From an uncultured Thermoleophilia bacterium (lineage in GTDB: Bacteria; Actinomycetota; Thermoleophilia; UBA2241): 64,000 nucleotides of DNA. Position numbers and translations under genes: made by a program. The number at the start of each line of letters is the position of its first letter. The first letter of the stretch is position 1. Under the pieces are notes generated by a model. The model was not told the origin of the DNA. It was given only the letters and a program-made list of their open reading frames with translations, and did not search any database. Positions 5,091 to 64,000 of the stretch are shown here, one piece after another. The stretch covers positions 210,363 through 274,362 of the forward strand of contig CAVXXF010000002.1 in NCBI GenBank assembly GCA_963765635.1, read 5' to 3'.

Positions 5091-6249
5091 ATGGAAGTAG
5101 AGATCGGCCGCGGCAAGAAGGGTCGCCGCGCCTACGGCTTCGACGACATCGCCATCGTACCCAGTCGCCGTACGCGCGACGCGGAGGACGTCGACATCAC
5201 CTGGAAGCTCGGCCCGCACACGCTGCCGCTGCCGTGCCTCGCCTCCGCCATGGACGGCGTGGTCGACCCGCAATTCGCCGTCACCATGGGCAAGCTCGGC
5301 GGCCTCGCGGTGCTCAACCTCGAGGGCGTGCAGACGCGCTACGAGAACGCCGACGAGCAGCTCGACCGCATCGCTGCGCTGCCCAAGGAGTCGGCCACTC
5401 GCACAATGCAGGAGATCTACAAGGCGCCCATCAAGCCCGAGCTGGTCGGCCGGCGCATCAAGGAGATCAAGGCCGGCGGCGTCCTGGCCGCCGCCTCGCT
5501 CACCCCGCAACGCGTCGAGGACTTCTACCAGATCGCCCTCGAGGCCGGCCTCGACGTGCTGATCATCCAGGGCACCGTGGTCTCGGCCGAGCACGTGAGC
5601 ACCAGGGTCGAGCCCCTCGACCTGCGCAAGTTCATCGCCCAGTGCCCCGTGCCGGTGATCGTCGGCGGCGTGGCCAGCTACGCCACCACGCTGCACCTCA
5701 TGCGCACCGGCGCCGTGGGCGTGCTCGTGGGCGTCGGCCCCGGTCACGCCTGTACGACGCGCGGCGTGCTCGGCATCGGCGTGCCGCAGGCCACGGCCAT
5801 CGCCGACGCCGCGGCGGCGCGCGTGCAGCACGTGCTCGAGACGGGCCAGTACTGTCACGTCATCGCCGACGGCGGCATGCGCACCGGCGGCGACGTCAGC
5901 AAGGCCATCGCCCTCGGCGCCGACGCGGTCATGATCGGCTCGCCGCTGGCCGCGGCCAGCGAAGCGCCCGGCCGCGGCTACCACTGGGGCATGGCCACCT
6001 TCCACCCCGAGCTCCCGCGCGGCACGCGCGTGAAGGCCGGGGTCAAGGGTACCCTCGAAGAGATCCTCCTCGGCCCGGCCCACGAGAACGACGGCACGCT
6101 CAACCTGTTCGGCGCGCTTGCGCACGAGCATGGCCACCTGTGGCTACGAGACGCTGAGCTCGTTCCAGAAGGCCGAGGTCATGGTGGCGCCGTCGCTGAT
6201 GACCGAGGGCAAGAAGCTGCAGAAGGAGCAAGACGTCGGCATGGGCTGA
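5091..6249 (+). CDS. guaB3: GuaB3-type IMP dehydrogenase-family protein (IMPDH catalytic barrel without CBS insert), with an apparent +1 frameshift near 6117-6121
   Basis: N-terminus MEVEIGRGKKGRRAYGFDDIAIVPSRRTRDAEDVDI...GKLGGLAVLNLEGV is typical of GuaB3. After ...NLFGAL the track frame reads non-protein-like AHEHGHLWLRDAELV.... The +1 frame (own translation) gives the conserved family C-terminus LRTSMATCGYETLSSFQKAEVMVAPSLMTEGKKLQKEQDVGMG*, stop ~6247-6249. Sits immediately upstream of guaA, as in Actinobacteria. Confidence 0.8.
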
Positions 6250-6300
6250 GGCCCGTCGCCGGCCAGCTGTACGCATTGACATCAGACTGAGGGAGGCGCC

Positions 6301-7857
6301 GTGGCGCAGGGCTCGCCGCAAGTGAAGGGGTTCGACACCGTGCTCGTCCTCGACTTCGGGGCGCAGTACGGGCAGCTCATCGCGCGTCGCGTGCGCGAGT
6401 GCCGCGTGTACTCGGAGCTCGTGCCGCACGATATGCCCATCGAGCGCATCAAGGCCTACGCGCCCAAAGGCATCATCCTCTCCGGCGGTCCCATGAGCGT
6501 GTACGTCGACGATGCCCCGCAGCTCGACCCCGAGATCCTCGAGCTGGGCATCCCGGTGCTGGGCATCTGTTACGGCATGCAGAGCCTCGCCCTCCACCTC
6601 GGCGGCACGGTGGCGCGCACCGACCTCAGCGAGTTCGGCAAGACGGCGCTCAGCGTGCTCCAGCCGGGGCTGCTCCTCGAGGGACTGCGTGGCGAGGAGC
6701 AGGCCTGGATGAGCCACCGCGACAGCGTCACCAAGGCGCCGCCCGGCTTCGAGGTGCTGGCCGCGAGCGCGGCTTCGCCCGTCGCGGCCATGGAGGCGCG
6801 CTCGCGGGGCTTCTACGGCGTGCAGTTCCACCCCGAGGTGCTGCACACGCCCAAGGGCACCGAGGTGCTCAAGAACTTCCTCTACAAGGCCTGCGGCTGC
6901 GCCCCCGCGTTCACCCCGGCCTCCATCATCGAGGAGTCCATCAAGCAGATCCGCGCCCAGGTCGGCGACAACAAGGCGATCCTGGGGCTCTCCGGAGGCG
7001 TCGACTCGTCGGTCGCCGCGCTGCTCATGTACAAGGCCATCGGCGAGCGCCTCACCTGCGTGTTCGTCGACCAGGGCATGATGCGCATGCGCGAGGCCGA
7101 ACGTGTGGTCGAGACCTTCGCCGGCACGTTCGGCATCCCGCTCATCGCAGTCGACGCCAGCGACCGCTTTCTCGACAAGCTTGAGGGCGTCACCGAGCCG
7201 GAGCGCAAGCGCAAGATCATCGGCGAGGAGTTCATCCGCTGCTTCGAGGAGGAGGCGCGCAAGCTTGTCGACGCCAGGTTCCTCGTGCAGGGGACGCTCT
7301 ATAGCGACGTCATCGAGAGTGGCACGCGCCAGGCCGCCAAGATCAAGAGCCACCACAACGTGGGCGGCCTCCCCGAGAAGATGGATTTCGCGCTCGTCGA
7401 GCCGCTGCGCTGGCTGTTCAAGGACGAGGTCCGCGCCGTCGGCGAGGAGCTCGGCCTGCCCGAGCGCATCGTGTGGCGCCAGCCGTTCCCCGGGCCCGGG
7501 CTCGCCATCCGCATCATCGGCGAGATCACGCGCGAGCGCGTCGACATCCTGCAGCGCGCCGATGCCATCGTGCAGGAGGAGATCCGCACGGCCGGCCTCT
7601 ACCGCGAGCTATGGCAGTGCTTCGCCATCCTGCCCGTGATCCGCAGCGTGGGCGTGCAGGGCGACGAACGCACCTACGGCTACCCGATCGCCATCCGGGC
7701 GGTCAAGAGCGACGATGCCATGACCGCCGACTGGGCGCACCTGCCGTACGACCTCCTCGAGACGCTCTCCTCGCGCATCATCAACGAGGTGCCCGAGGTC
7801 AACCGCGTGGTCTACGACATCTCGAGCAAGCCGCCGAGCACCATCGAGTGGGAGTAG
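6301..7857 (+). CDS. guaA: GMP synthase (glutamine-hydrolysing)
   Basis: 518 aa. Class-I glutamine amidotransferase domain ([19 protein letters not shown]...GICYGMQ) plus ATP-pyrophosphatase domain (SGGVDSSV). Full-length, no disruption. Confidence 0.95.
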
Positions 7858-54545: not shown

Positions 54546-54585
54546 GCGCCCGTCCGGGGGACCCGTGGCCACGAGAGGAAGGACC

Positions 54586-55416
54586 ATGAGAACCGTGCGT
54601 CTGTTCATGACCCTTGCCGGCGCTCTTCTGCTCATCTCGGGGTGCGGGGCAGGGGGGTCAGGCGATGTGCGGTCTCCTTCGTCCAGTCCCTCCCCGGTCG
54701 CCACCGAGCCGGCGACCGCCCCACCGGCGTCCGGCGTCACGATCCGCTATGAAGGCAACGCCCAGGTCGAGGTGAGCCTGAACGGCGGCGCCCGGGTGCT
54801 GATCGACGTCTACGACCCGTCTGCTCTCTCGGCGCCGCCGACGGCCGACGACATTTTGTTGACCACGCACACTCACGACGACCACCTGTCGCACGGCTTT
54901 CGCGGCAGCTTTCCCGGCCGCCAGCTGTTCGTGAGGGAGGGTACGATCGAGACGCCCGACGCGGTCATCACGGGCATGGCGGCGGCGCACAACGAGGGCG
55001 ACCCACTGCTGCCGAAGAACGGCACCGACTACATCTTCGTCATCGACATCGGTGGCCTGCGCATCGCCCACTTCGGCGACCTCGGGCAGACCGTTCTGAC
55101 GGCCGGGCAGCTGGAGAAGCTGGGCGACGTCGACATCGCCGTCACCCAGTTCGAGAACTCCTTCAGCCATATGGACGCGATCAACCAGAAGGGCTTCCGC
55201 CTCATGGAGCAGGTCAAGCCGCCGCTCATCCTCCAGACGCACACGAGCCCAGCCGCGGTGCAGTATGCCGGGACCCTGTGGCCGGTGCTGTTCTCGGGGC
55301 GATCCGCGGTGACGATCGCAGCCACCGATCTCCCCGCCGAGACCAGCCTGCTGCTGCTCGGCGACGACGCCGCCTTCTACGCTGGGCTCGTGCCCGCGGA
55401 GAAGGTGGACTGGTGA
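54586..55416 (+). CDS. MBL-fold metallo-hydrolase lipoprotein
   Basis: Lipobox LLISGCG. THTHDDHL (HxHxDH) metal-binding motif. Confidence 0.7.
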   Translation: MRTVRLFMTLAGALLLISGCGAGGSGDVRSPSSSPSPVATEPATAPPASGVTIRYEGNAQVEVSLNGGARVLIDVYDPSALSAPPTADDILLTTHTHDDHLSHGFRGSFPGRQLFVREGTIETPDAVITGMAAAHNEGDPLLPKNGTDYIFVIDIGGLRIAHFGDLGQTVLTAGQLEKLGDVDIAVTQFENSFSHMDAINQKGFRLMEQVKPPLILQTHTSPAAVQYAGTLWPVLFSGRSAVTIAATDLPAETSLLLLGDDAAFYAGLVPAEKVDW

Positions 55417-55420
55417 GGCC

Positions 55421-56674
55421 GTGTCGTCGGCTCCGGGACTGGGCGACGTGACCGCCGCCGGCGACCCCGTCCTCGAGAAGGCGGGCCTGGACGAGGCAGC
55501 CCTGGAGGCCGCTGAAGACAGCGGCCGCCATGCTACCAACCTGGAGCTCTTCCTTGACCTCGTCTTCGTCTTCGCGGTCACGCAGGTCGCCGGGGTGCTC
55601 GCCTCCGACCTGAGCGTGGCCGGCTTCGCCAGGGGGCTGCTCCTGGCTTGGCTGGTGTGGTGGTTGTGGTCGCAGTTCACCTGGCTGGGCACCGCGATCG
55701 ACCTGGGCGGCCGCTCGGCGACCCAGTTCCTGGTGCTGGCCACGGTGCCGCTCACCTTGCTCATGGCGGTCGCCTTGCCGGGGGCCTACGGGTCATCGGG
55801 GCTCGAGTTCGCGGGCGCGTATCTGGCCGTGAACCTGTGGGCGCTGGCGATCCAGGGCTGGGGCTTGCGGCGGGAGCCGGCGACTCGAAGAGCGTGGCTC
55901 CGCTACGCGCCGCTGGCGGCCCTGGCGCCGCTGGTGCTGCTCGGCGGCGCCTTTCTCCCCGATGGCGCGCGCTTCGGCGTGTGGTGCGCGGTCGCGGCGT
56001 TCAGCGTCGCCAGCGCCCTGGCCGGCGGACGAGGCCAGGAGGGGACCATCGAATGGACGGTCGACCCCGGGCATTTCACCGAACGGCACGCGCTCTTCGT
56101 CATCATCTCTCTCGGTGAGATCCTGGTCGCAGTGGGCGCCTCGGCCGCCGGAGTGCGTCTCAGCCCGGTGGTCGGCGCCGGCCTGCTCGCCACCGTGGCC
56201 GTCGCCTGCGTGTTCTGGTGGACCTACTTCGCTTATGTGCCTGAGGCGGTCGAGCGGGCCCTGCGCTCGGCCAGTCACCACGAACGTGGGCGCATCGCCC
56301 GCGACCGCTTCACCCTCGGCCACTTCCCGATCGTCTTCGGCCTGGTCCTCTTCGCCGTGGTCGCCGAACACGTCGTCGCGCATCCGACCGACTCCCCGTC
56401 TGGCGGCGAGCTCGCGGTGCTGGCCGGCGCCGTCGCGTTCTTCGTGGGCGGTCTCCTGGGCCTGCAATGGCAGGCCGTGCGTCGGCTGGCGCCTGAGCGC
56501 GTCGCGGCCATCGTCGCTGTGGCGGCGCTGTGCTGGGTCGCCGGGCCCAGGGTGCCCGGCGTGGTGCTGGTCGCCGTGGTCGCGGTCATCATCGCGATCA
56601 TGCAGACGATCTCGTTGCGCCGCTACGATCGGCTCGTGGCCGAGCGGACGAAGTCCGGGGAGGAGCCGACATGA
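55421..56674 (+). CDS. LtrA (low-temperature-requirement A)-family membrane protein
   Basis: NLELFLDLVFVFAVTQV start motif and ~10 TM helices typical of LtrA/bacilliredoxin-associated family. Confidence 0.7.
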   Translation: MSSAPGLGDVTAAGDPVLEKAGLDEAALEAAEDSGRHATNLELFLDLVFVFAVTQVAGVLASDLSVAGFARGLLLAWLVWWLWSQFTWLGTAIDLGGRSATQFLVLATVPLTLLMAVALPGAYGSSGLEFAGAYLAVNLWALAIQGWGLRREPATRRAWLRYAPLAALAPLVLLGGAFLPDGARFGVWCAVAAFSVASALAGGRGQEGTIEWTVDPGHFTERHALFVIISLGEILVAVGASAAGVRLSPVVGAGLLATVAVACVFWWTYFAYVPEAVERALRSASHHERGRIARDRFTLGHFPIVFGLVLFAVVAEHVVAHPTDSPSGGELAVLAGAVAFFVGGLLGLQWQAVRRLAPERVAAIVAVAALCWVAGPRVPGVVLVAVVAVIIAIMQTISLRRYDRLVAERTKSGEEPT

Positions 56675-57099
56675 AACAGCTGGTCGTGGCCATCGTTCTC
56701 CTGGGTCTCGCGGGGGTCGCTGCCGGCGGGTGCGCAGCGTCCGAAGCGGACGCAGAGGGCGACCCCGGAGACGCGATCCTGGCTGCGGCTTTCAGGGATC
56801 GCGCGAACGACCTGCAGGTGCAGGGCCGCGGCACGGTGTCGAGGCTGCTCACCGATGACGACGAGGGCAGCCGTCACCAGCGCTTCATCGTGCGCCTGGA
56901 TTCCGGTCAGACGCTTCTCGTGGCGCACAACCTCGATGTGGCCCCCCGCGTCGTGGGTCTGGCGGTCGGCGACGAGATCGCCTTCAGCGGAGTCTATGAG
57001 TGGAGTGCCGAGGGCGGCACCATTCACTGGACGCATGCGGACCCGGACGGGGATCACGCCCCGGGATGGCTGCGCCGCGACAAGAAGACGTACCAGTAG
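56671..57099 (+). CDS. DUF3465-like lipoprotein
   Basis: MKQLVVAIVLLGLAGVAAGGCAAS lipoprotein signal. HQRFIVRLDSGQTLLVAHNLDVAPRV...GVYEWSAEGGTIHWTHADPDGDHAPGWL. ATGA overlap with ltrA. Confidence 0.6.
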   Translation: MKQLVVAIVLLGLAGVAAGGCAASEADAEGDPGDAILAAAFRDRANDLQVQGRGTVSRLLTDDDEGSRHQRFIVRLDSGQTLLVAHNLDVAPRVVGLAVGDEIAFSGVYEWSAEGGTIHWTHADPDGDHAPGWLRRDKKTYQ

Positions 57100-57204
57100 G
57101 CGCACCGCGGGCGGCGTCCACGTTGCCGCACCAGGCGCGACGCAGTAAAGTTCATCGTTCGGAGTGCACCCGCCCCGTGGGGCGTACACAGGAGGAGACA
57201 TCGC

Positions 57205-58209
<1,005 letters not shown>

Positions 58210-58225
58210 GCTGGGGGGCCGTGAG

Positions 58226-59779
58226 ATGAGCGAGAAGAAGAGAGTCATCGTTCTCGAGGAGCTTGCTCCCGAGGGCATCGACCTTCTTCGCGGCGAAGGC
58301 CTCGCGGTCGACGTCGGCATAGGCTGGGACGACGACGAGCTTCTCATCAGGATCCCCGGATGCCACGGTCTGATCGTCGGCCCGGCGCATGGCGTCACGG
58401 CGGACATGCTCCGGGCCGGCGGCGACCTTCAGGTGGTGGGTCGCACCGGGCTGAGCGTGGCCGACATCGACGTCGCCGAGGCGACCAGGCGCGGCGTCGT
58501 CGTGGTCCACACTCCGCAGAGCAACGCGATCTCCGCGGCTGAGCAGGCGCTGGCGCTCGTGCTGGCGTGCGCGCGCGACCTGGCGGGTACGCACGCCGAC
58601 CTTCGCGCCGGCCGCTGGGAGCCGGATGCCTGGGCGCGGTCTGGCGTCGAGGTGCGGGGCCGGACGCTCGGTATCGTGGGGCCCGGACACGTCGCGCTGC
58701 TGCTCAGCGAAGCCGCTTCAGCCTTGGGCATGAACGTGCTGACGGCGGCCGACGATTCCGAGCGCCTCTACGCCGAAGCCGATTTCATCCTGGTGGATCT
58801 GCCCGGCGACCCGCAGCCTGGGGAGCTCGTCGGTGAGGCCGAGTTCGCACTCATGAAGGACGGTGTGCGGGTCATCAGTCTGGCGCCGGCGGGCGTCGTC
58901 GACCCGGCGGCATGGGCGGCCGCTATCGCCGGAGGCAAGGTGGCGGCCTCGGCCGCCGCGGTGCACGCCGGCGATCCGCCGCTCAGCGGCCCTCTCGCGA
59001 CGCATGACCGCCTACTTCTCGCGCCCCACCTTGAAGAGTCGACCCTCGATGCACGACTGCGCGCGGGCCTCATGATCGCCGAGCAGGTCGCCGCCGTGCT
59101 GCGCGGCGAGTTCGCCAGCAATGCCGTCAACGTGCCGGTCACGCTGGTCGACGACGCCGACGAGCTCATGCCGTATCTGGGTCTGTGCGCCCAGCTGGGG
59201 CGGTTGCTCGTGGGTCTCGCCGGCGGCTCAGTCGAAGAGGTCGAGATCAGCTACGGCGGCAGCTTCGCCTTCTTCGACACGCGGATCCTCACGCTCGGCG
59301 TGCTTGGCGGCGTGCTCGCCGACCAGGTGGAGGGCCGCGTCAACTACGTCAACGTCCAGTCCATCGCGGAGGCGCGGGGTGTGAGCGCCCGCGAGACGAA
59401 GCAGTCGGACCTTCCCGACTTCCCGCGGCTCATCACGGTGTCGACGCGCGGTCCTCAGGGCCTCGTGTCGGTCTCGGGCACCTCACTTGGTCCGGAGCAC
59501 AAAGCGCGACTCGTGAGGGTCTTCGGCGAAGACATCGATATCGATCCGGCGCCGCACATGCTGTTCCTGCGGTACGTCGACGCACCGGGCGTGGGCGGTG
59601 CGGTCGGCACCATGCTCGGGCAGTGGGGGATCAACATCCGCCACATGTCTGTCGGTCGTGGTACGGCTCAGCGAGAGTCGGTCATGGCCCTCACCCTCGA
59701 CGAGCCGCTCGACGCGGATCAGCTCGAGCAGCTTGTCGCGCGCTGCGGGCTGGCGTTCGGCAAGGGCGTCGAGCTGTAG
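58226..59779 (+). CDS. SerA-like paralog (D-3-phosphoglycerate dehydrogenase architecture with ASB and ACT domains) lacking the NAD-binding and catalytic signatures; probable pseudo-enzyme
   Basis: Aligned to the bona fide serA at 61309. GLGRIG -> GPGHVA. A ~20-aa deletion removes the AYDP NAD-Asp segment. Catalytic VARGGIID -> LAPAGVVD. AVDVYPKEP -> AAAVHAGDP. Flanking segments and the C-terminal ASB/ACT half are well conserved (e.g. RILTLGVLGGVLADQVEGRVNYVNVQSIAEARG). Confidence 0.7.
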   Translation: MSEKKRVIVLEELAPEGIDLLRGEGLAVDVGIGWDDDELLIRIPGCHGLIVGPAHGVTADMLRAGGDLQVVGRTGLSVADIDVAEATRRGVVVVHTPQSNAISAAEQALALVLACARDLAGTHADLRAGRWEPDAWARSGVEVRGRTLGIVGPGHVALLLSEAASALGMNVLTAADDSERLYAEADFILVDLPGDPQPGELVGEAEFALMKDGVRVISLAPAGVVDPAAWAAAIAGGKVAASAAAVHAGDPPLSGPLATHDRLLLAPHLEESTLDARLRAGLMIAEQVAAVLRGEFASNAVNVPVTLVDDADELMPYLGLCAQLGRLLVGLAGGSVEEVEISYGGSFAFFDTRILTLGVLGGVLADQVEGRVNYVNVQSIAEARGVSARETKQSDLPDFPRLITVSTRGPQGLVSVSGTSLGPEHKARLVRVFGEDIDIDPAPHMLFLRYVDAPGVGGAVGTMLGQWGINIRHMSVGRGTAQRESVMALTLDEPLDADQLEQLVARCGLAFGKGVEL

Positions 59780-59884
59780 GGGCCGCGCTCACCGGGACCC
59801 TGGCGCTTGTGCATCTGGACACAAGGCGTGGCCCTGAGCTATCATGTCCGCCATGCGAGACTCGACACATCGCCCGTCGTGACG

Positions 59885-59927
59885 GCTGGAGCGGGCGGGG
59901 CGGATCTACCGCCCCGCCCGCTCCAGC
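59885..59927. other. Perfect 19-bp-arm inverted repeat (gctggagcgggcggggcgg-atcta-ccgccccgcccgctccagc); strong stem-loop after serA', candidate factor-independent terminator or REP-like element
   Basis: Read directly from the sequence. No T-tract follows. Confidence 0.5.
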
Positions 59928-60133
59928 CGGCTCCCGCATCTAACCGTGACGCTCCACTCTTTCTCAGGGCCGTGCGGCTGCAGCCGCGCCTGATCATCCC
60001 CCGATCGTCCGTCTGACGTCCAACAGTTGTGAGGGCCGCCGCCGATTGGCTACGATGGCGACTTCGCCCACTCACTCGCTCACTCCGCGGCCCTCTGCGC
60101 CCCGGCCCCGAACCGCCCGGAAAGGACACTCCG

Positions 60134-61294
60134 ATGCAGAAGCGTTTCCTCATCACTCCCGGCCCCACGCCTGTGCCGCCAGAGGTGCTCTCGGCCCTGG
60201 CCGAACCGGTCATCCACCACCGCGCGCCGCGCTTCACCGAGATCCTCACGCAGGTCGTCGCGGGCATGAAGTACATCTACCAGACCGAGAACGACATCAT
60301 GGTGTACGCCGCCAGCGGCACCGGCGCCATGGAGGGCGCGGTCGTCAATGTCGTGAACCCGGGCGACCACGTCCTGGTCGCCTCCATCGGCAACTTCGGC
60401 GAGCGCTGGAAGAAGCTGAACGCCACGTGGGGCGCCGAGGTCACCGTGCTCGACTACGCGTGGGGCACCAAGGCCGACCCGGCCGACATCGAGAAGGCGC
60501 TGGCCGCCGACCCGGCGATCAAGGCCGTTTTCGTGCAGCACAGCGAGACGTCCACCGGCGTCGTCAACGACATCGAGGCGCTCGGCGCGATCGTCGCCAG
60601 GACGCCGGCGATCCTCGTCGTCGACGCGATCAGCGGCCTCGGCGCCAGCGATCTCAAGACCGACGCGTGGCACGTGGACATCTGCGTGGCCGGCTCCCAG
60701 AAGGCCCTGATGGTGCCGCCGGGCCTCGCCTACGCCGCCGTCAGCGAAAAGGCCTGGGCCGTCATCGACCAGTGCAAGACCCCACGCTTCTACTTTGACT
60801 TCGTCGCCATGCGCAAGAAGATGACCGGCGACTCCGCGCAGACGCCGTACACGCCGGCCGTGAACCTCATGGTCGCGCAGAACGCCGCCATCGACCTGAT
60901 CAAGGAAGAGGGCCTCCAGAACGTGTTCGAGCGGCATCGCGTGCTCGGCAAGGCCGCCCGCGAGGGCGTCAAGGCGCTCGGCCTCGAGCTGTTCGCGGTC
61001 GAGGATCCGGAGGCCAACTCCGTGACCGCCGTCAAGGTGCCGGAGGGCGTCGACGGCGGCAAGATCGGTAAGATCGCCCGCGACAAATGGGGCGTATGGC
61101 TCGCCGGCGGCCAGGGCGCCGTCAAGGGCAAGATCTTCCGCTTCGGCCACTGTGGCTACTTCGGCCACAGCGACATCATCGTCGGGCTCACCACGGTCGA
61201 GATGGTGCTGGCCGAGCTGGGCTACGACGTCAAGTTCGGCGCCTCCGCGGCCGCCGCCGAAAAGGTGTTCATGCAGAGCACCGTGCAGCTCTGA
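60134..61294 (+). CDS. Class-V PLP aminotransferase (serine-pyruvate / phosphoserine aminotransferase family), likely the SerC-equivalent
   Basis: MQKRFLITPGPTPVPPEVL.... Class-V fold pattern with SQKALMVPPGLA (PLP Lys). Located between the two serA homologs. Confidence 0.75.
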   Translation: MQKRFLITPGPTPVPPEVLSALAEPVIHHRAPRFTEILTQVVAGMKYIYQTENDIMVYAASGTGAMEGAVVNVVNPGDHVLVASIGNFGERWKKLNATWGAEVTVLDYAWGTKADPADIEKALAADPAIKAVFVQHSETSTGVVNDIEALGAIVARTPAILVVDAISGLGASDLKTDAWHVDICVAGSQKALMVPPGLAYAAVSEKAWAVIDQCKTPRFYFDFVAMRKKMTGDSAQTPYTPAVNLMVAQNAAIDLIKEEGLQNVFERHRVLGKAAREGVKALGLELFAVEDPEANSVTAVKVPEGVDGGKIGKIARDKWGVWLAGGQGAVKGKIFRFGHCGYFGHSDIIVGLTTVEMVLAELGYDVKFGASAAAAEKVFMQSTVQL

Positions 61295-61308
61295 AGGGGG
61301 CGACCGAG

Positions 61309-62910
61309 ATGATCGACAAGAAGAAGGTCCTGATCAAGGAGAAGCTCGCCCCCGAGGGCATCTCGTACCTCGAAGAGCAGGGTTTCCAGGTGGACGTGGG
61401 CACGGACTGGGATGCGGACGAGCTCCTTGCCCGCATCCCCGAGTACAACGGCATCATCATCCGCTCCGCCACCAAGGTGACGGCGGACGTCATCGCGGCC
61501 GGCGCGAAGCTCCAGGTGGTGGGCCGCGCCGGCGTCGGCGTCGACAACGTCGACGTCGCCGCGGCGACCAAGCGCGGCGTCATCGTCGTCAACGCGCCGC
61601 AGAGCAACGTGCTCTCTGCCGCCGAGCATACGGTGGCTCTGATCATGGCCACTGCGCGCAACATCCCGCAGGCCCACGCCGACCTCAAGGACGGCCGCTG
61701 GGAGAAGGGCAAGTGGGGCAAGGGCGGCGTGGAGCTGCGCGGCAAGACGCTCGGCATCCTCGGCCTGGGGCGCATTGGCTTTCTGGTCGCCGAGGACGCT
61801 CGCGGTCTCGGCATGGACGTGCTCGCCTACGACCCGTTCGTGCCCGCCGAGAAGTTCCACGAGCTCGGCCTCAAGCGCGCCGACAACCCCGACAAGATCT
61901 ACCGCGAGGCCGATTTCATCACCGTACACCTGCCGAAGAACGCCGAGACCCTCGGCTTCATCGGCGACGAGGAGTTCGCCAAGATGAAGGACGGCGTGCG
62001 CGTGGTCAACGTCGCCCGCGGCGGTATCATCGACGAGGACGCCTGGGCGCGCGCCATCGAAAACGGTAAGGTCGCCGTCTCCGCGGTCGACGTGTACCCC
62101 AAGGAGCCCACCACCGAGAGCCCCTTGTTCAAGTACGACAGCGTCATCGCCACGCCGCATCTCGGGGCCAGCACCGTGGAAGCTCAGCTGCGCGCCGGCA
62201 CGATCATCGCCGAGCAGGTGGCGGCGGTGCTCAACGGCGAGTTCGCCAGCAACGCCGTGAACATCCCGCTGGCGCCCGGCGAGGACGCCGACGAGCTGAT
62301 GCCGTTCCTTGGGCTCTGCAAGCAGCTCGGCAAGCTCGTGGTGCAGCTCGCCGAGGGCCCGGTCGACGCCTTCGAGATCGGCTACGGCGGCGGCATCGCC
62401 CGCTACGACACCCGCATCCTCACGCTCGGCGTGCTGCAGGGGGTGCTCGCCGACAAGGTGGACGGGCCGGTGAACTTCGTCAACGTGCAGAACATCGCCG
62501 AGGAGCGCGGCATCACCGCCAAGGAGACCAAGCAGCCGGCGGCTATCGACTTCCTCAACCTCATCACGGTGACGACCCGCGACGCGCAGGGCGAGCTCTC
62601 GGTGTCCGGGACGACCCTGGGCCCGAAGCATCGGCCGCGCCTGGTCAGGGTGTACCGGCAGGACGTCGACATCGAGCCGGCGCCGCACATGGTCTTTCTG
62701 CGCTACTCGGACGTGCCCGGCATGATCGGCCGCATCGGCACCAAAGTCGGCGAGTTCGGCATCAACATCGGCCAGATGGGCGTGGGGCGCGATCTCAAGG
62801 AGCACGAAGCCATGATGGGCCTCACGCTCGACGAGTCCCTCACCGCCGACCAGCTCGCCGATCTCGTGGCGAGCTGCGATCTGCTCGGCGGCCGGCGGGT
62901 GGAGCTCTAG
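61309..62910 (+). CDS. serA: D-3-phosphoglycerate dehydrogenase (long form with ASB and ACT domains)
   Basis: GKTLGILGLGRIGFLVA; catalytic R (VARGGIID), E and H (TPHLGAST); ACT domain at the C-terminus. Confidence 0.9.
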   Translation: MIDKKKVLIKEKLAPEGISYLEEQGFQVDVGTDWDADELLARIPEYNGIIIRSATKVTADVIAAGAKLQVVGRAGVGVDNVDVAAATKRGVIVVNAPQSNVLSAAEHTVALIMATARNIPQAHADLKDGRWEKGKWGKGGVELRGKTLGILGLGRIGFLVAEDARGLGMDVLAYDPFVPAEKFHELGLKRADNPDKIYREADFITVHLPKNAETLGFIGDEEFAKMKDGVRVVNVARGGIIDEDAWARAIENGKVAVSAVDVYPKEPTTESPLFKYDSVIATPHLGASTVEAQLRAGTIIAEQVAAVLNGEFASNAVNIPLAPGEDADELMPFLGLCKQLGKLVVQLAEGPVDAFEIGYGGGIARYDTRILTLGVLQGVLADKVDGPVNFVNVQNIAEERGITAKETKQPAAIDFLNLITVTTRDAQGELSVSGTTLGPKHRPRLVRVYRQDVDIEPAPHMVFLRYSDVPGMIGRIGTKVGEFGINIGQMGVGRDLKEHEAMMGLTLDESLTADQLADLVASCDLLGGRRVEL

Positions 62911-62912
62911 CT

Positions 62913-64000
62913 TCAGCCGCCGTTGAACACGACCCGCAGGCGGGCGCTGCGGGAGACGCCCGCCTCGTGGTCGCTGTGCGCCGGGAGCAGCGTGCGGAAC
63001 AGGTAGGTGGCCGCGCGCAGCGGCAGCGGCCAAGAGACGCGGTAGCGGGAGCGGCCGTCGAGCGAGCCGCCGGCCACCGTGCGCCAGGAACCGCCGCTGC
63101 GCCGCTGCACGAGCACCCGGCTGCCCGGGTGGGCCGGTTTGACGGCCCCCGAGAAGATCTCGACGTATCCGCTGCCGGCCCGGCGGCTGGCGAGCGCGAT
63201 CGAGACCTGGGGCGCCACCGTGAGGTCGCGGAACGCCTCGCTGACGATGCTTTCGCCGGCTGGGCCCGTGGCCGCGGCGGTCCACACAACGGTGGCGTCG
63301 GGGGCGATCGTCGCTCGGTAGAAACCGTTGCCGTCGGTGGTCGCCGTCGCCGCCGTCTTCTTGACGCCGCCGGCGCTGGCCCAGCGGATCTCGACGCAGC
63401 GTTCGGCGAGCGGGCCTCCGGCGGCCGTGAGGTACCCGGAAACGCCGACCTTCTCTCCGTAGGTGATCTGGGAGGCGCGGGGGCGTAAGGTGAGCGCCGC
63501 GCCCGCTTCGCCCAGCCGCCAGAGCCGGGCGCCGGGGCCCATACCGAGGGCGTACTCGCCGCCGGCTTGGTCGGGAGCGATGGCCTCTAAGGCTGCCGGG
63601 ATGGGGCTCAGGGCGGGGTTCGACCAGGCGCCGAGATAGGTCATCCGCGCCACGCCGGCGGAGGTTCTGCCGTCGCCGTAGGCGACGGCGAGGTCGCCGG
63701 CGCTGTTCCACGAGACGCCGTCCACGCTGGGGTCGGCCAGGCCGAGGCGCAAGGCGCTGCCGCCGGGATCGCCCACGAGGCTGCCATCCTCGGCGATGTG
63801 CTGTACGCGCAGGCCATCGCCGGACGTGCCCGCGAGGTAGCAGCCGCCCCAGGCATCGTCGGCGAGCGTCGTCTCACCGCTCACGCTCACGGCGGCAGGT
63901 CGCAGCCACAGGCGGTCTCCGGCGGCGGCGAAGCGCTGCACCTTGAGCGCGCCGCCTTCGCGCCATGCCATCGTCGCGCTCGACGCCGCGACGATGCCCA
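62913..64000 (-). CDS. Hypothetical secreted/beta-rich protein; N-terminus lies beyond the window end
   Basis: Minus-strand ORF running off the 3-prime edge of the window. Gly/Ser/Thr-rich beta-strand-like composition. No motif identified. Confidence 0.4.
   Translation of the reverse strand, partial: GIVAASSATMAWREGGALKVQRFAAAGDRLWLRPAAVSVSGETTLADDAWGGCYLAGTSGDGLRVQHIAEDGSLVGDPGGSALRLGLADPSVDGVSWNSAGDLAVAYGDGRTSAGVARMTYLGAWSNPALSPIPAALEAIAPDQAGGEYALGMGPGARLWRLGEAGAALTLRPRASQITYGEKVGVSGYLTAAGGPLAERCVEIRWASAGGVKKTAATATTDGNGFYRATIAPDATVVWTAAATGPAGESIVSEAFRDLTVAPQVSIALASRRAGSGYVEIFSGAVKPAHPGSRVLVQRRSGGSWRTVAGGSLDGRSRYRVSWPLPLRAATYLFRTLLPAHSDHEAGVSRSARLRVVFNGG

Follow-up and report, generated by a model that had tools for sequence, protein, structure and literature searches.

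We report on serA', a degenerate paralogue of serA located in a 64,000-nucleotide stretch of contig CAVXXF010000002.1, from an uncultured Thermoleophilia bacterium; we refer to the whole of this stretch as the window. The genes ilvC, serA', a class-V aminotransferase gene and serA follow one another in this order, and serA codes for an intact type I phosphoglycerate dehydrogenase (PGDH), which we call the partner of SerA'. Judging from the sequences, SerA' is very probably a full-length PGDH paralogue that is catalytically dead and maintained by selection, i.e., a pseudoenzyme. A role as hetero-oligomeric regulator of SerA is a more tentative proposal, which we consider possible while leaning slightly to doubt; the combined statement, that SerA' is a selected pseudoenzyme acting as a regulatory partner of SerA, appears to us evenly balanced. 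A preliminary description, made from the window alone, had already suggested a pseudo-enzyme, and our analysis supported this reading: the degenerate proteins form a monophyletic clade, their genes always lie beside an intact serA, purifying selection is strongest on their ASB and ACT domains, and their catalytic positions drift.

SerA' and SerA align over their full length with 55% identity and a single 16-residue gap (BLASTP). Pfam finds the domains 2-Hacid_dh, 2-Hacid_dh_C, PGDH_inter and ACT in both proteins, in agreement with the full long-form architecture claimed beforehand. The NAD domain, however, scores 88.5 bits in SerA' against 183.7 in SerA, and with the NCBIfam equivalog model TIGR01327 SerA' reaches 396 bits, under the cut-off of 454, whereas SerA reaches 623.1. 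The defining residues of the SERA subfamily were taken from the knowledgebase paper of the 2-hydroxyacid dehydrogenases (2HADH), according to which the invariant Arg of an Arg-Ser motif binds the phosphate of the substrate, and the catalytic triad is Arg-Glu-His (PMC6303947). The intact SerA has all of the diagnostic residues (RSRDEH, plus GLGRIG). In SerA', the Arg-Ser motif is gone (IIRSAT in SerA, IVGPAH in SerA'; R52G, S53P), the substrate loop GVGVDNVD reads GLSVADID, the NAD fingerprint (GxGxxG) has changed from GLGRIG to GPGHVA, and the Asp that determines NAD specificity (AYDP in SerA) falls within a 16-residue deletion of the beta-B/alpha-D segment. Further along, HLP has become DLP, the catalytic Arg is Pro (ARGG to APAG, R237P), Ala replaces the conserved Asp in AVDVYP (VDVY to AAVH, D261A) and the catalytic Glu is Asp (KEP to GDP, E266D). 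The catalytic His (His284) is kept, in PHLEEST where SerA has PHLGAST, and it is the only member of the triad that the SerA' of the window retains.

Some of these changes had been noticed in the preliminary description, and the alignment contains all of them: the altered fingerprint, the Arg to Pro replacement (VARGGIID to LAPAGVVD) and the Asp to Ala replacement (AVDVYP to AAAVHA). The loss of residues from the dinucleotide-binding segment is also real, but it amounts to 16 residues in the BLASTP alignment and not to about 20. The losses in the Arg-Ser motif, in GVDN (now SVAD), of the Asp of YDP, of Glu (to Asp), in HLP (to DLP) and of Lys133 (to Pro) come in addition to those listed there.

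The substitutions affect positions that are nearly or entirely invariant elsewhere. At position 52, all 61 outgroup long-form SerAs and all 9 partner SerAs have Arg, whereas the 10 SerA' proteins have Gly, Ala or Val. The basic residue that one subunit donates to the active site of its neighbour is Arg or Lys in all 61 outgroups and Lys133 in SerA; it is Pro in the SerA' of the window (K133P), and of 10 SerA' orthologues, one still has Lys there and nine have Pro, Ala or some other residue. We also counted how many of the positions conserved in at least 90% of the 61 outgroup sequences are retained in each protein. The substrate-binding domain has 31 such positions, of which SerA' keeps 19 and SerA all 31; for the NAD domain, with 44, the numbers are 15 and 38, for ASB, with 9, they are 9 and 8, and for ACT, with 10, they are 9 and 10. 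SerA' therefore resembles a type I PGDH in its four-domain architecture and in its descent, and departs from one in the Arg-Ser motif, the catalytic triad, the NAD site and the TIGR01327 score.

A protein search over 5.8 billion proteins gave matches to SerA' whose identity declines gradually from 94% to about 55%. The ortholog counts are taken from the best 120 matches: 76 are degenerate (73 non-redundant ones once two fragments and an apparent chimera are dropped), and intact SerAs number 45 (46 counting the SerA of the window). Together with the 15 syntenic loci described below, the 73 orthologues provide the check on the distribution of serA' genes in relatives that had been proposed beforehand. 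At positions 52, 53, 237, 261, 266 and 284, the orthologues carry combinations such as GPPADH, GPRADH, GPGAER, APGEDH, GPSTAA, GASAAA and GPAGEL, among others, and the deep branches of the clade have lost His284 too (with Arg, Ala, Leu or Val instead). The beta-B/alpha-D segment is full length but scrambled in the members of 533 aa, and carries deletions of 16 or 19 residues, among others, elsewhere. The former catalytic positions vary between orthologues with no new consensus, a pattern that reads as the progressive erosion of a site no longer needed. We also scanned 1.84 billion cluster representatives, and this yielded 141 long-form relatives of full length. The six diagnostic residues are complete in 130 of them, which indicates that dead long-form SerAs are uncommon; two of the 11 deviant representatives belong to the SerA' clade, and the others are isolated sequences (e.g., P0179, see below).

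The arrangement serA'-aminotransferase-serA was found in 15 of 15 loci of this lineage (L001, L002, L003, L004, L007, L008, L010, L011, L012, L013, L015, L017, L019, L084 and L085; the contig of L084 ends inside serA). These loci come from metagenome-assembled genomes labelled Thermoleophilia or Actinomycetota, sampled at sites that include Danish soils and the sediment of Lake Pavin. Each SerA' locus with available flank has an intact serA 1.5-4 kb downstream, and among the loci with enough flank we did not find any with this type of SerA but without SerA' upstream. The gene ilvC lies ahead of serA' in 12 of the 15 loci, that is, in all except L084, L085 and L013, the last being cut at the contig edge. 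Since ilvC is missing ahead of serA' in L084 and L085, its linkage to serA' is dispensable, whereas the linkage of serA' to the aminotransferase gene and serA is obligatory. We did not find SerA' within ±6 kb of serA in Gaiellales, Solirubrobacterales, Rubrobacter, Acidimicrobiia, Chloroflexota, Clostridia or archaea, all of which have an intact SerA alone. A genome scan with an N-terminal SerA' profile, built on motifs common to true SerA, returned mostly true SerAs and served as a negative control for these other lineages.

In a neighbour-joining tree of 49 long-form sequences (Kimura distances), the monophyly of SerA', the monophyly of the partner SerAs and the grouping of both clades together each obtained 100 of 100 bootstrap replicates. 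The SerA' and SerA clades were recovered with all columns, with the catalytic half alone and with ASB plus ACT alone, where SerA' monophyly was supported by 99 of 100 replicates. Both clades nest among Thermoleophilia-like type I SerAs, and their branching orders are broadly congruent, with SerA' branches several-fold longer. These topologies indicate that SerA' arose by a single old duplication of serA at the base of an uncultured Thermoleophilia lineage, followed by vertical co-inheritance with serA. The order ilvC-aminotransferase-serA is found in the Solirubrobacterales locus L020, and aminotransferase-serA in Gaiellales, Rubrobacter and Chloroflexota. These arrangements look ancestral, in which case the duplicate was inserted between ilvC and the aminotransferase gene.

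We measured selection on each gene as whole-gene dN/dS (omega; Nei-Gojobori method, NG86), using the same genome pairs for all genes compared. Omega was 0.20-0.42 for serA' and 0.09-0.21 for serA; ilvC and the aminotransferase gene gave 0.07-0.22. A codon bootstrap of five phylogenetically independent pairs gave the dead catalytic half of SerA' an omega of 0.27-0.61, with upper 95% limits no higher than 0.80; that of the regulatory half was 0.14-0.28 in SerA' and 0.11-0.31 in SerA. Pooled values for SerA' and SerA, respectively, were 0.43 and 0.15 in the N-terminal part of the substrate-binding domain, 0.37 and 0.25 in the N-terminal helices of the NAD domain, 0.48 and 0.06 in the NAD cofactor core, 0.22 and 0.09 in the hinge and C-terminal part of the substrate-binding domain, 0.21 and 0.17 in ASB, and 0.19 and 0.34 in ACT. 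Relative to SerA, constraint on SerA' is thus relaxed about 8-fold at the NAD-binding core, much the same in ASB and stronger in ACT. No domain of SerA' has an omega as high as 1: purifying selection acts on the whole protein, and on ASB and ACT it is at least as strong as in SerA. It had been noted beforehand that the C-terminal half is well conserved. This is correct, but the difference in identity is modest for this pair (62% in the C-terminal half, 54% in the N-terminal half), and the contrast is far clearer in the selection analysis. We infer that the selected function of SerA' is non-catalytic and seated in the ASB-ACT module.

A duplicated gene that has lost its catalytic residues could also be a neutral relic, a pseudogene on its way to loss. 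The dN of serA' is 3-6 times that of serA, and between genomes its dS is roughly double that of the neighbouring genes. Its codon bias is weaker as well: the G+C content at third codon positions is 0.85 and the effective number of codons 36.6, against 0.94-0.95 and 28-29 in ilvC, the aminotransferase gene and serA. Lys has been replaced by Arg (7 Lys and 33 Arg in SerA', 30 Lys and 28 Arg in SerA); the weak codon bias and the depletion of Lys suggest lower expression and a drift of composition toward GC-rich codons. Moreover, serA' is frameshifted in the three nanopore-derived loci L015, L017 and L019. True pseudogenisation in these loci was rejected, however: ilvC, the aminotransferase gene or serA is frameshifted in the same assemblies, and we therefore attribute the frameshifts to assembly error. 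Dozens of divergent orthologues, down to about 55% identity, have intact full-length open reading frames, omega is significantly below 1 in every domain across the five independent pairs, ACT is more constrained than its counterpart in SerA, and the protein is modelled with a confidently predicted fold. Decay toward loss is thus extremely unlikely.

Purifying selection on the dead half, with omega below 1, might instead point to a new enzymatic activity, in which the remodelled cleft of SerA' would catalyse another reaction, independent of NAD, or accommodate a cofactor or substrate other than the original one. The catalytic His is kept in the SerA' of the window and in many close relatives, and both PHLEEST and the GP that replaces RS are conserved in the nearer part of the clade. 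But the former active-site positions of SerA' have not been fixed anew; they vary between orthologues, with the His lost in the deeper branches. The greatest relaxation, from 0.06 to 0.48, falls exactly in the cofactor core, the deletions in the beta-B/alpha-D segment differ between subclades (0, 16 and 19 aa, among others), and neither Pfam nor NCBIfam gives a signature of a new family. We consider neofunctionalisation of this kind very unlikely.

We turn now to the regulatory half. In the PGDH of Mycobacterium tuberculosis serine is bound by Tyr461, Asp463 and Asn481 (PMC8238522), and the equivalent residues are Tyr, Asp and Asn in 10 of 10 SerA' and in 9 of 9 partner SerA proteins. Of the universally conserved ACT residues, SerA' has changed a single one, Ile473 of the Gly-rich effector loop. 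Among the 61 outgroups, 55 have Ile at this position and six have Leu or Val, whereas all 10 SerA' proteins have Gly. Gln489, three residues past the serine-binding Asn, is His in 10 of 10 SerA'. More differences fixed between the clades are found in ASB, at positions 413, 416, 417, 425, 442 and 449-451, although part of them (e.g., G450R) arose on the SerA branch and not on that of SerA'. We also considered subfunctionalisation, in which the partner SerA would have lost regulatory residues that SerA' kept, and rejected it: SerA keeps 8 of 9 universal residues in ASB and 10 of 10 in ACT.

The AlphaFold2 monomer model of SerA' has a mean pLDDT of 89.9 and a pTM of 0.81, and predicts four intact domains with a shortened Rossmann fold; the ACT domain is modelled as a beta-alpha-beta-beta-alpha-beta fold. 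The top Foldseek matches to the model are the M. tuberculosis PGDH structures 3DDN, 1YGY and 3DC2, over about 530 columns, and M. tuberculosis type I PGDH (1YGY/3DDN) is also the closest solved relative by sequence. SerA' resembles M. tuberculosis SerA1 (1YGY, 3DC2, 3DDN) in the four-domain architecture, the predicted fold and the Tyr/Asp/Asn of the serine site in ACT. It differs from SerA of this type in having no Arg-Ser motif, no NAD fingerprint or its Asp, no catalytic Arg or Glu and no trans-acting basic residue, so catalysis would not be expected.

Between serA' and the aminotransferase gene lies a perfect GC-rich hairpin (Table 1). In the same spacer of L002, L007, L008, L011 and L012 we found perfect hairpins of at least 20 bp that start with CGGCTGG, with different stem sequences. 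The hairpin of the window was found by eye and by folding, and a consensus terminator scan of positions 56900-63100, which requires a U tail, returned none; it is probably a terminator closing the ilvC-serA' transcription unit, of a type common in high-GC actinobacteria. Downstream of it, a promoter-like element, TTGTGA-N18-TA(C/G)(G/A)AT, aligns in 9 of 9 loci compared (the window, L001, L002, L007, L008, L011, L012, L084 and L085), 75-100 nt before the start of the aminotransferase gene, and is followed by a conserved ribosome-binding site, AAAGGAC. Because aminotransferase-serA has a conserved promoter of its own and a hairpin separates the two units, serA' is probably expressed separately from this pair and, in the window, co-transcribed with ilvC. 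An Rfam scan of positions 56500-63500 (E<=1) gave two chance-level eukaryotic matches alone, and no riboswitch or leader around serA'. The scan that returned no terminator also gave a promoter-like site at 59816-59845, ahead of the hairpin.

In the model that we prefer, SerA' would assemble with SerA through the ASB and ACT contacts that build type I PGDH tetramers, and perhaps through contacts of the nucleotide domain too. Effector sites in the mixed oligomers would differ in affinity or specificity, and would change the response of SerA activity to serine or to another amino acid. We propose mixed oligomers because serA' is always adjacent to serA, the domains responsible for tetramer formation and effector binding are kept, the residues of the serine site are kept, and the remaining body of the protein is under scaffold-like selection. 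The preliminary description had put forward a regulatory subunit of this kind, tuning serine feedback, and such a role would fit the strict co-occurrence with serA, the serine-site residues and the constraint on ACT. The loss of the trans-acting Lys suggests that the nucleotide domain of SerA' pairs with that of another SerA'; the resulting pair could then join SerA dimers through ASB and ACT. Alternatively, a SerA' that paired with SerA through the nucleotide domain would weaken the active site of that SerA.

Several observations weigh against a regulatory partnership with SerA. By the conserved promoter and the intervening hairpin, serA' appears to lie outside the aminotransferase-serA operon, and across loci the distance from serA' to the aminotransferase gene ranges between 127 and 2347 bp. 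The weak codon bias of serA' suggests lower expression, and an obligate 1:1 complex with SerA is then not obviously expected. The absence of the trans-donated basic residue is what would be expected if the partner at the nucleotide domain were another dead SerA' and not SerA. Finally, plant PGDHs that do not respond to serine have the same Asp and Asn (PMC8238522), so that finding these residues in SerA' is no proof of serine binding; I473G and Q489H alter the effector loop as well, and the sequence does not tell which ligand SerA' would bind.

Part of this evidence would also suit a stand-alone amino-acid sensor, in which homo-oligomers of SerA' bind serine or another small molecule and act on a target other than SerA (e.g., the adjacent aminotransferase, enzymes of branched-chain amino acids, or gene expression), or simply buffer the ligand. 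The loss of K133 fits self-pairing of SerA', serA' appears to be transcribed apart from aminotransferase-serA, and in the window it starts 16 nt behind ilvC; in addition, the ACT domain is under tighter constraint than that of SerA, and the clade-invariant I473G and Q489H suggest a changed ligand or interface. However, the adjacency to serA persists in the two loci where the linkage to ilvC is gone (L084 and L085), and Pfam detects no DNA-binding or other output domain in SerA'. A pure sensor, moreover, would have no need for a dead catalytic half of 300 residues, and yet this half is under purifying selection. We therefore consider the sensor unlikely, more so than a partnership with SerA.

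Our literature searches found no published PGDH pseudoenzyme, inactive PGDH paralogue or PGDH hetero-oligomer, and no pseudoenzyme partner of a 2HADH, in agreement with the earlier remark that the arrangement is undescribed; one match to "hetero-oligomer" was irrelevant, as it concerned the cysteine synthase complex. Regulation of an active enzyme by a dead paralogue is well known from eukaryotes (prozymes, pseudokinases), but has rarely been documented in bacterial central metabolism. We know of no dead-paralogue partner for any 2-hydroxyacid dehydrogenase. SerA' would thus be a new case for the PGDH and 2-hydroxyacid dehydrogenase family, of a kind of pseudoenzyme paralogue known elsewhere.

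The beta subunit of alpha2beta2 aspartokinase and IlvN/IlvH of acetohydroxyacid synthase are non-catalytic ACT polypeptides that form effector sites at ACT-ACT interfaces. By analogy, the role proposed for SerA' would be that of a non-catalytic, ACT-bearing partner of a catalytic subunit; unlike these small proteins, which consist of regulatory domains alone, SerA' keeps a dead body of 300 residues under purifying selection. In CtBP, NAD(H) binding and the catalytic triad are intact, and NADH serves as a signal. Neither an intact NAD site nor a complete triad is left in SerA', and the likeness lies in a 2HADH fold with a main role outside metabolic catalysis (PMC6303947). The PGDH isozymes of land plants have diverged in regulation, AtPGDH1 and AtPGDH3 being sensitive to serine and AtPGDH2 insensitive (PMC8238522). 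They are, like SerA' and SerA, long-form duplicates with diverged ACT/ASB regulation, but all of them are catalytically active (PMC8238522), whereas SerA' has lost catalysis and is strongly constrained in its regulatory half alone.

Besides the ACT-only subunits and the plant isozymes, the closest parallels in mechanism are the prozyme of trypanosome S-adenosylmethionine decarboxylase (AdoMetDC), an inactive paralogue whose complex with the enzyme and effect on it have been demonstrated (PMC5201418, PMC6221367), and HisZ, the regulatory subunit of the short-form ATP phosphoribosyltransferase, for which complex and effect have likewise been demonstrated (PMC10795190). In each case an inactive paralogue under selection coexists with an active enzyme, and the heteromer mechanism proposed here is of the same kind; the complex is demonstrated in those systems and inferred for SerA'. 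HisZ differs further in being a paralogue of histidyl-tRNA synthetase (HisRS) and not of its partner, whereas SerA' is a paralogue of SerA. In its most specific form, our proposal is that SerA' is the first bacterial prozyme-like subunit of a D-2-hydroxyacid dehydrogenase, forming mixed tetramers through ASB and ACT contacts, with hybrid ACT-ACT sites remodelled by I473G and Q489H that would change the effector specificity or sensitivity of the serine pathway; stated with this much detail, we regard it as doubtful. If it were true, the first step of serine synthesis would be controlled by a separately expressed regulatory subunit, and input from branched-chain or other amino acids would be possible, which would fit the position of serA' behind ilvC.

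One duplication, with dozens of orthologues and selection resolved by domain, offers a natural experiment on an allosteric enzyme becoming a regulatory protein, and the system may inform on the roles of ASB and ACT that are independent of catalysis. There is also a practical side: SerA' proteins are annotated as D-3-phosphoglycerate dehydrogenase (JGI names), and under this label metabolic reconstructions of these Thermoleophilia count what is probably a non-enzyme as an enzyme. Interest is limited by the lineage being uncultured, with function read here from sequence.

The coordinates of all features in the window are collected in Table 1.

Table 1. Genes, protein domains and transcription signals at the serA' locus (window coordinates).
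Feature	Position	Strand	Remarks
ilvC, ketol-acid reductoisomerase	57205..58209	+	Pfam KARI_N E 1e-73, KARI_C E 3e-66
serA', degenerate type I phosphoglycerate dehydrogenase paralogue	58226..59779	+	517 aa plus stop
SerA' substrate-binding domain, N-terminal part (aa 1-98)	58226..58519	+	Arg-Ser to Gly-Pro, GVDN to SVAD
SerA' nucleotide-binding (Rossmann) domain remnant (aa 99-270)	58520..59035	+	still predicted to fold
SerA' substrate-binding domain, C-terminal return, and hinge helix (aa 271-304)	59036..59137	+	His retained (PHLEEST)
SerA' ASB (intervening) domain (aa 305-436)	59138..59533	+	Pfam PGDH_inter 75 bits; carries clade-specific fixed substitutions
SerA' ACT domain (aa 437-517)	59534..59776	+	Pfam ACT 27.9 bits (cut-off 27)
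Perfect GC-rich hairpin, 21-bp stem (GGCTGGAGCGGGCGGGGCGG-atcta-complement); probable terminator	59883..59929	+	no U tail; about 100 nt past the serA' stop
Promoter-like element TTGTGA-N18-TACGAT	60027..60056	+	upstream of the aminotransferase-serA pair
Class-V (AGXT/SGAT-type) aminotransferase, presumed phosphoserine aminotransferase of the pathway	60131..61294	+	Pfam Aminotran_5
serA, intact type I phosphoglycerate dehydrogenase, partner of SerA'	61309..62910	+	533 aa; TIGR01327 623.1 bits (cut-off 454)

The serA' open reading frame runs from the ATG at 58226 to the stop codon at 59777-59779. Its start is preceded by a Shine-Dalgarno-like run, GGGGGG. An alternative in-frame ATG at 58181 would overlap ilvC, and the orthologues, which have 514-533 aa and start with MSEKKR, do not use it.

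The aminotransferase is AGXT/SGAT-like and not a classical SerC. Every NCBIfam match to it is under its cut-off, the best being BhcA (352 bits against 650). Aminotransferase-serA pairs also occur in Gaiellales, Rubrobacter, Solirubrobacterales and Chloroflexota loci, and this pairing across lineages suggests that the enzyme is their phosphoserine aminotransferase.

Upstream of ilvC, the window encodes a metallo-beta-lactamase-fold protein (54565-55416), an LtrA-family membrane protein (55421-56674) and a DUF3465 protein (about 56671-57099); a DUF3465 gene is also found ahead of ilvC in L002 and L003. In L084 and L085 the place of ilvC is taken by toxin-antitoxin-like pairs (5767-6496 and 6296-7002, respectively), one consisting of HEPN and nucleotidyltransferase genes and the other of PIN and DUF6364 genes.

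Our scan of cluster representatives also identified P0179, an unrelated long-form PGDH homologue that is 35% identical to SerA' (L086, 129-1730, on a 3.1-kb contig of GCA_001577815.1). Its six diagnostic positions read SDSGEH, its fingerprint is GFSATG instead of GxGxxG, and it may represent an independent, second dead long-form SerA. Single or double deviations were seen in the representatives P0158, P0167, P0199, P0225 and P0272. In another sequence, P0045, an N-terminal part of SerA' type (GP, GHGQVV, the deletion and SLAPAG) is fused to a segment of SerA type (VDVYPKEP and PHLGAST). The two neighbouring paralogues seem to have been merged into this chimera during metagenome assembly, which implies that short-read assemblies may collapse the serA'/serA pair.

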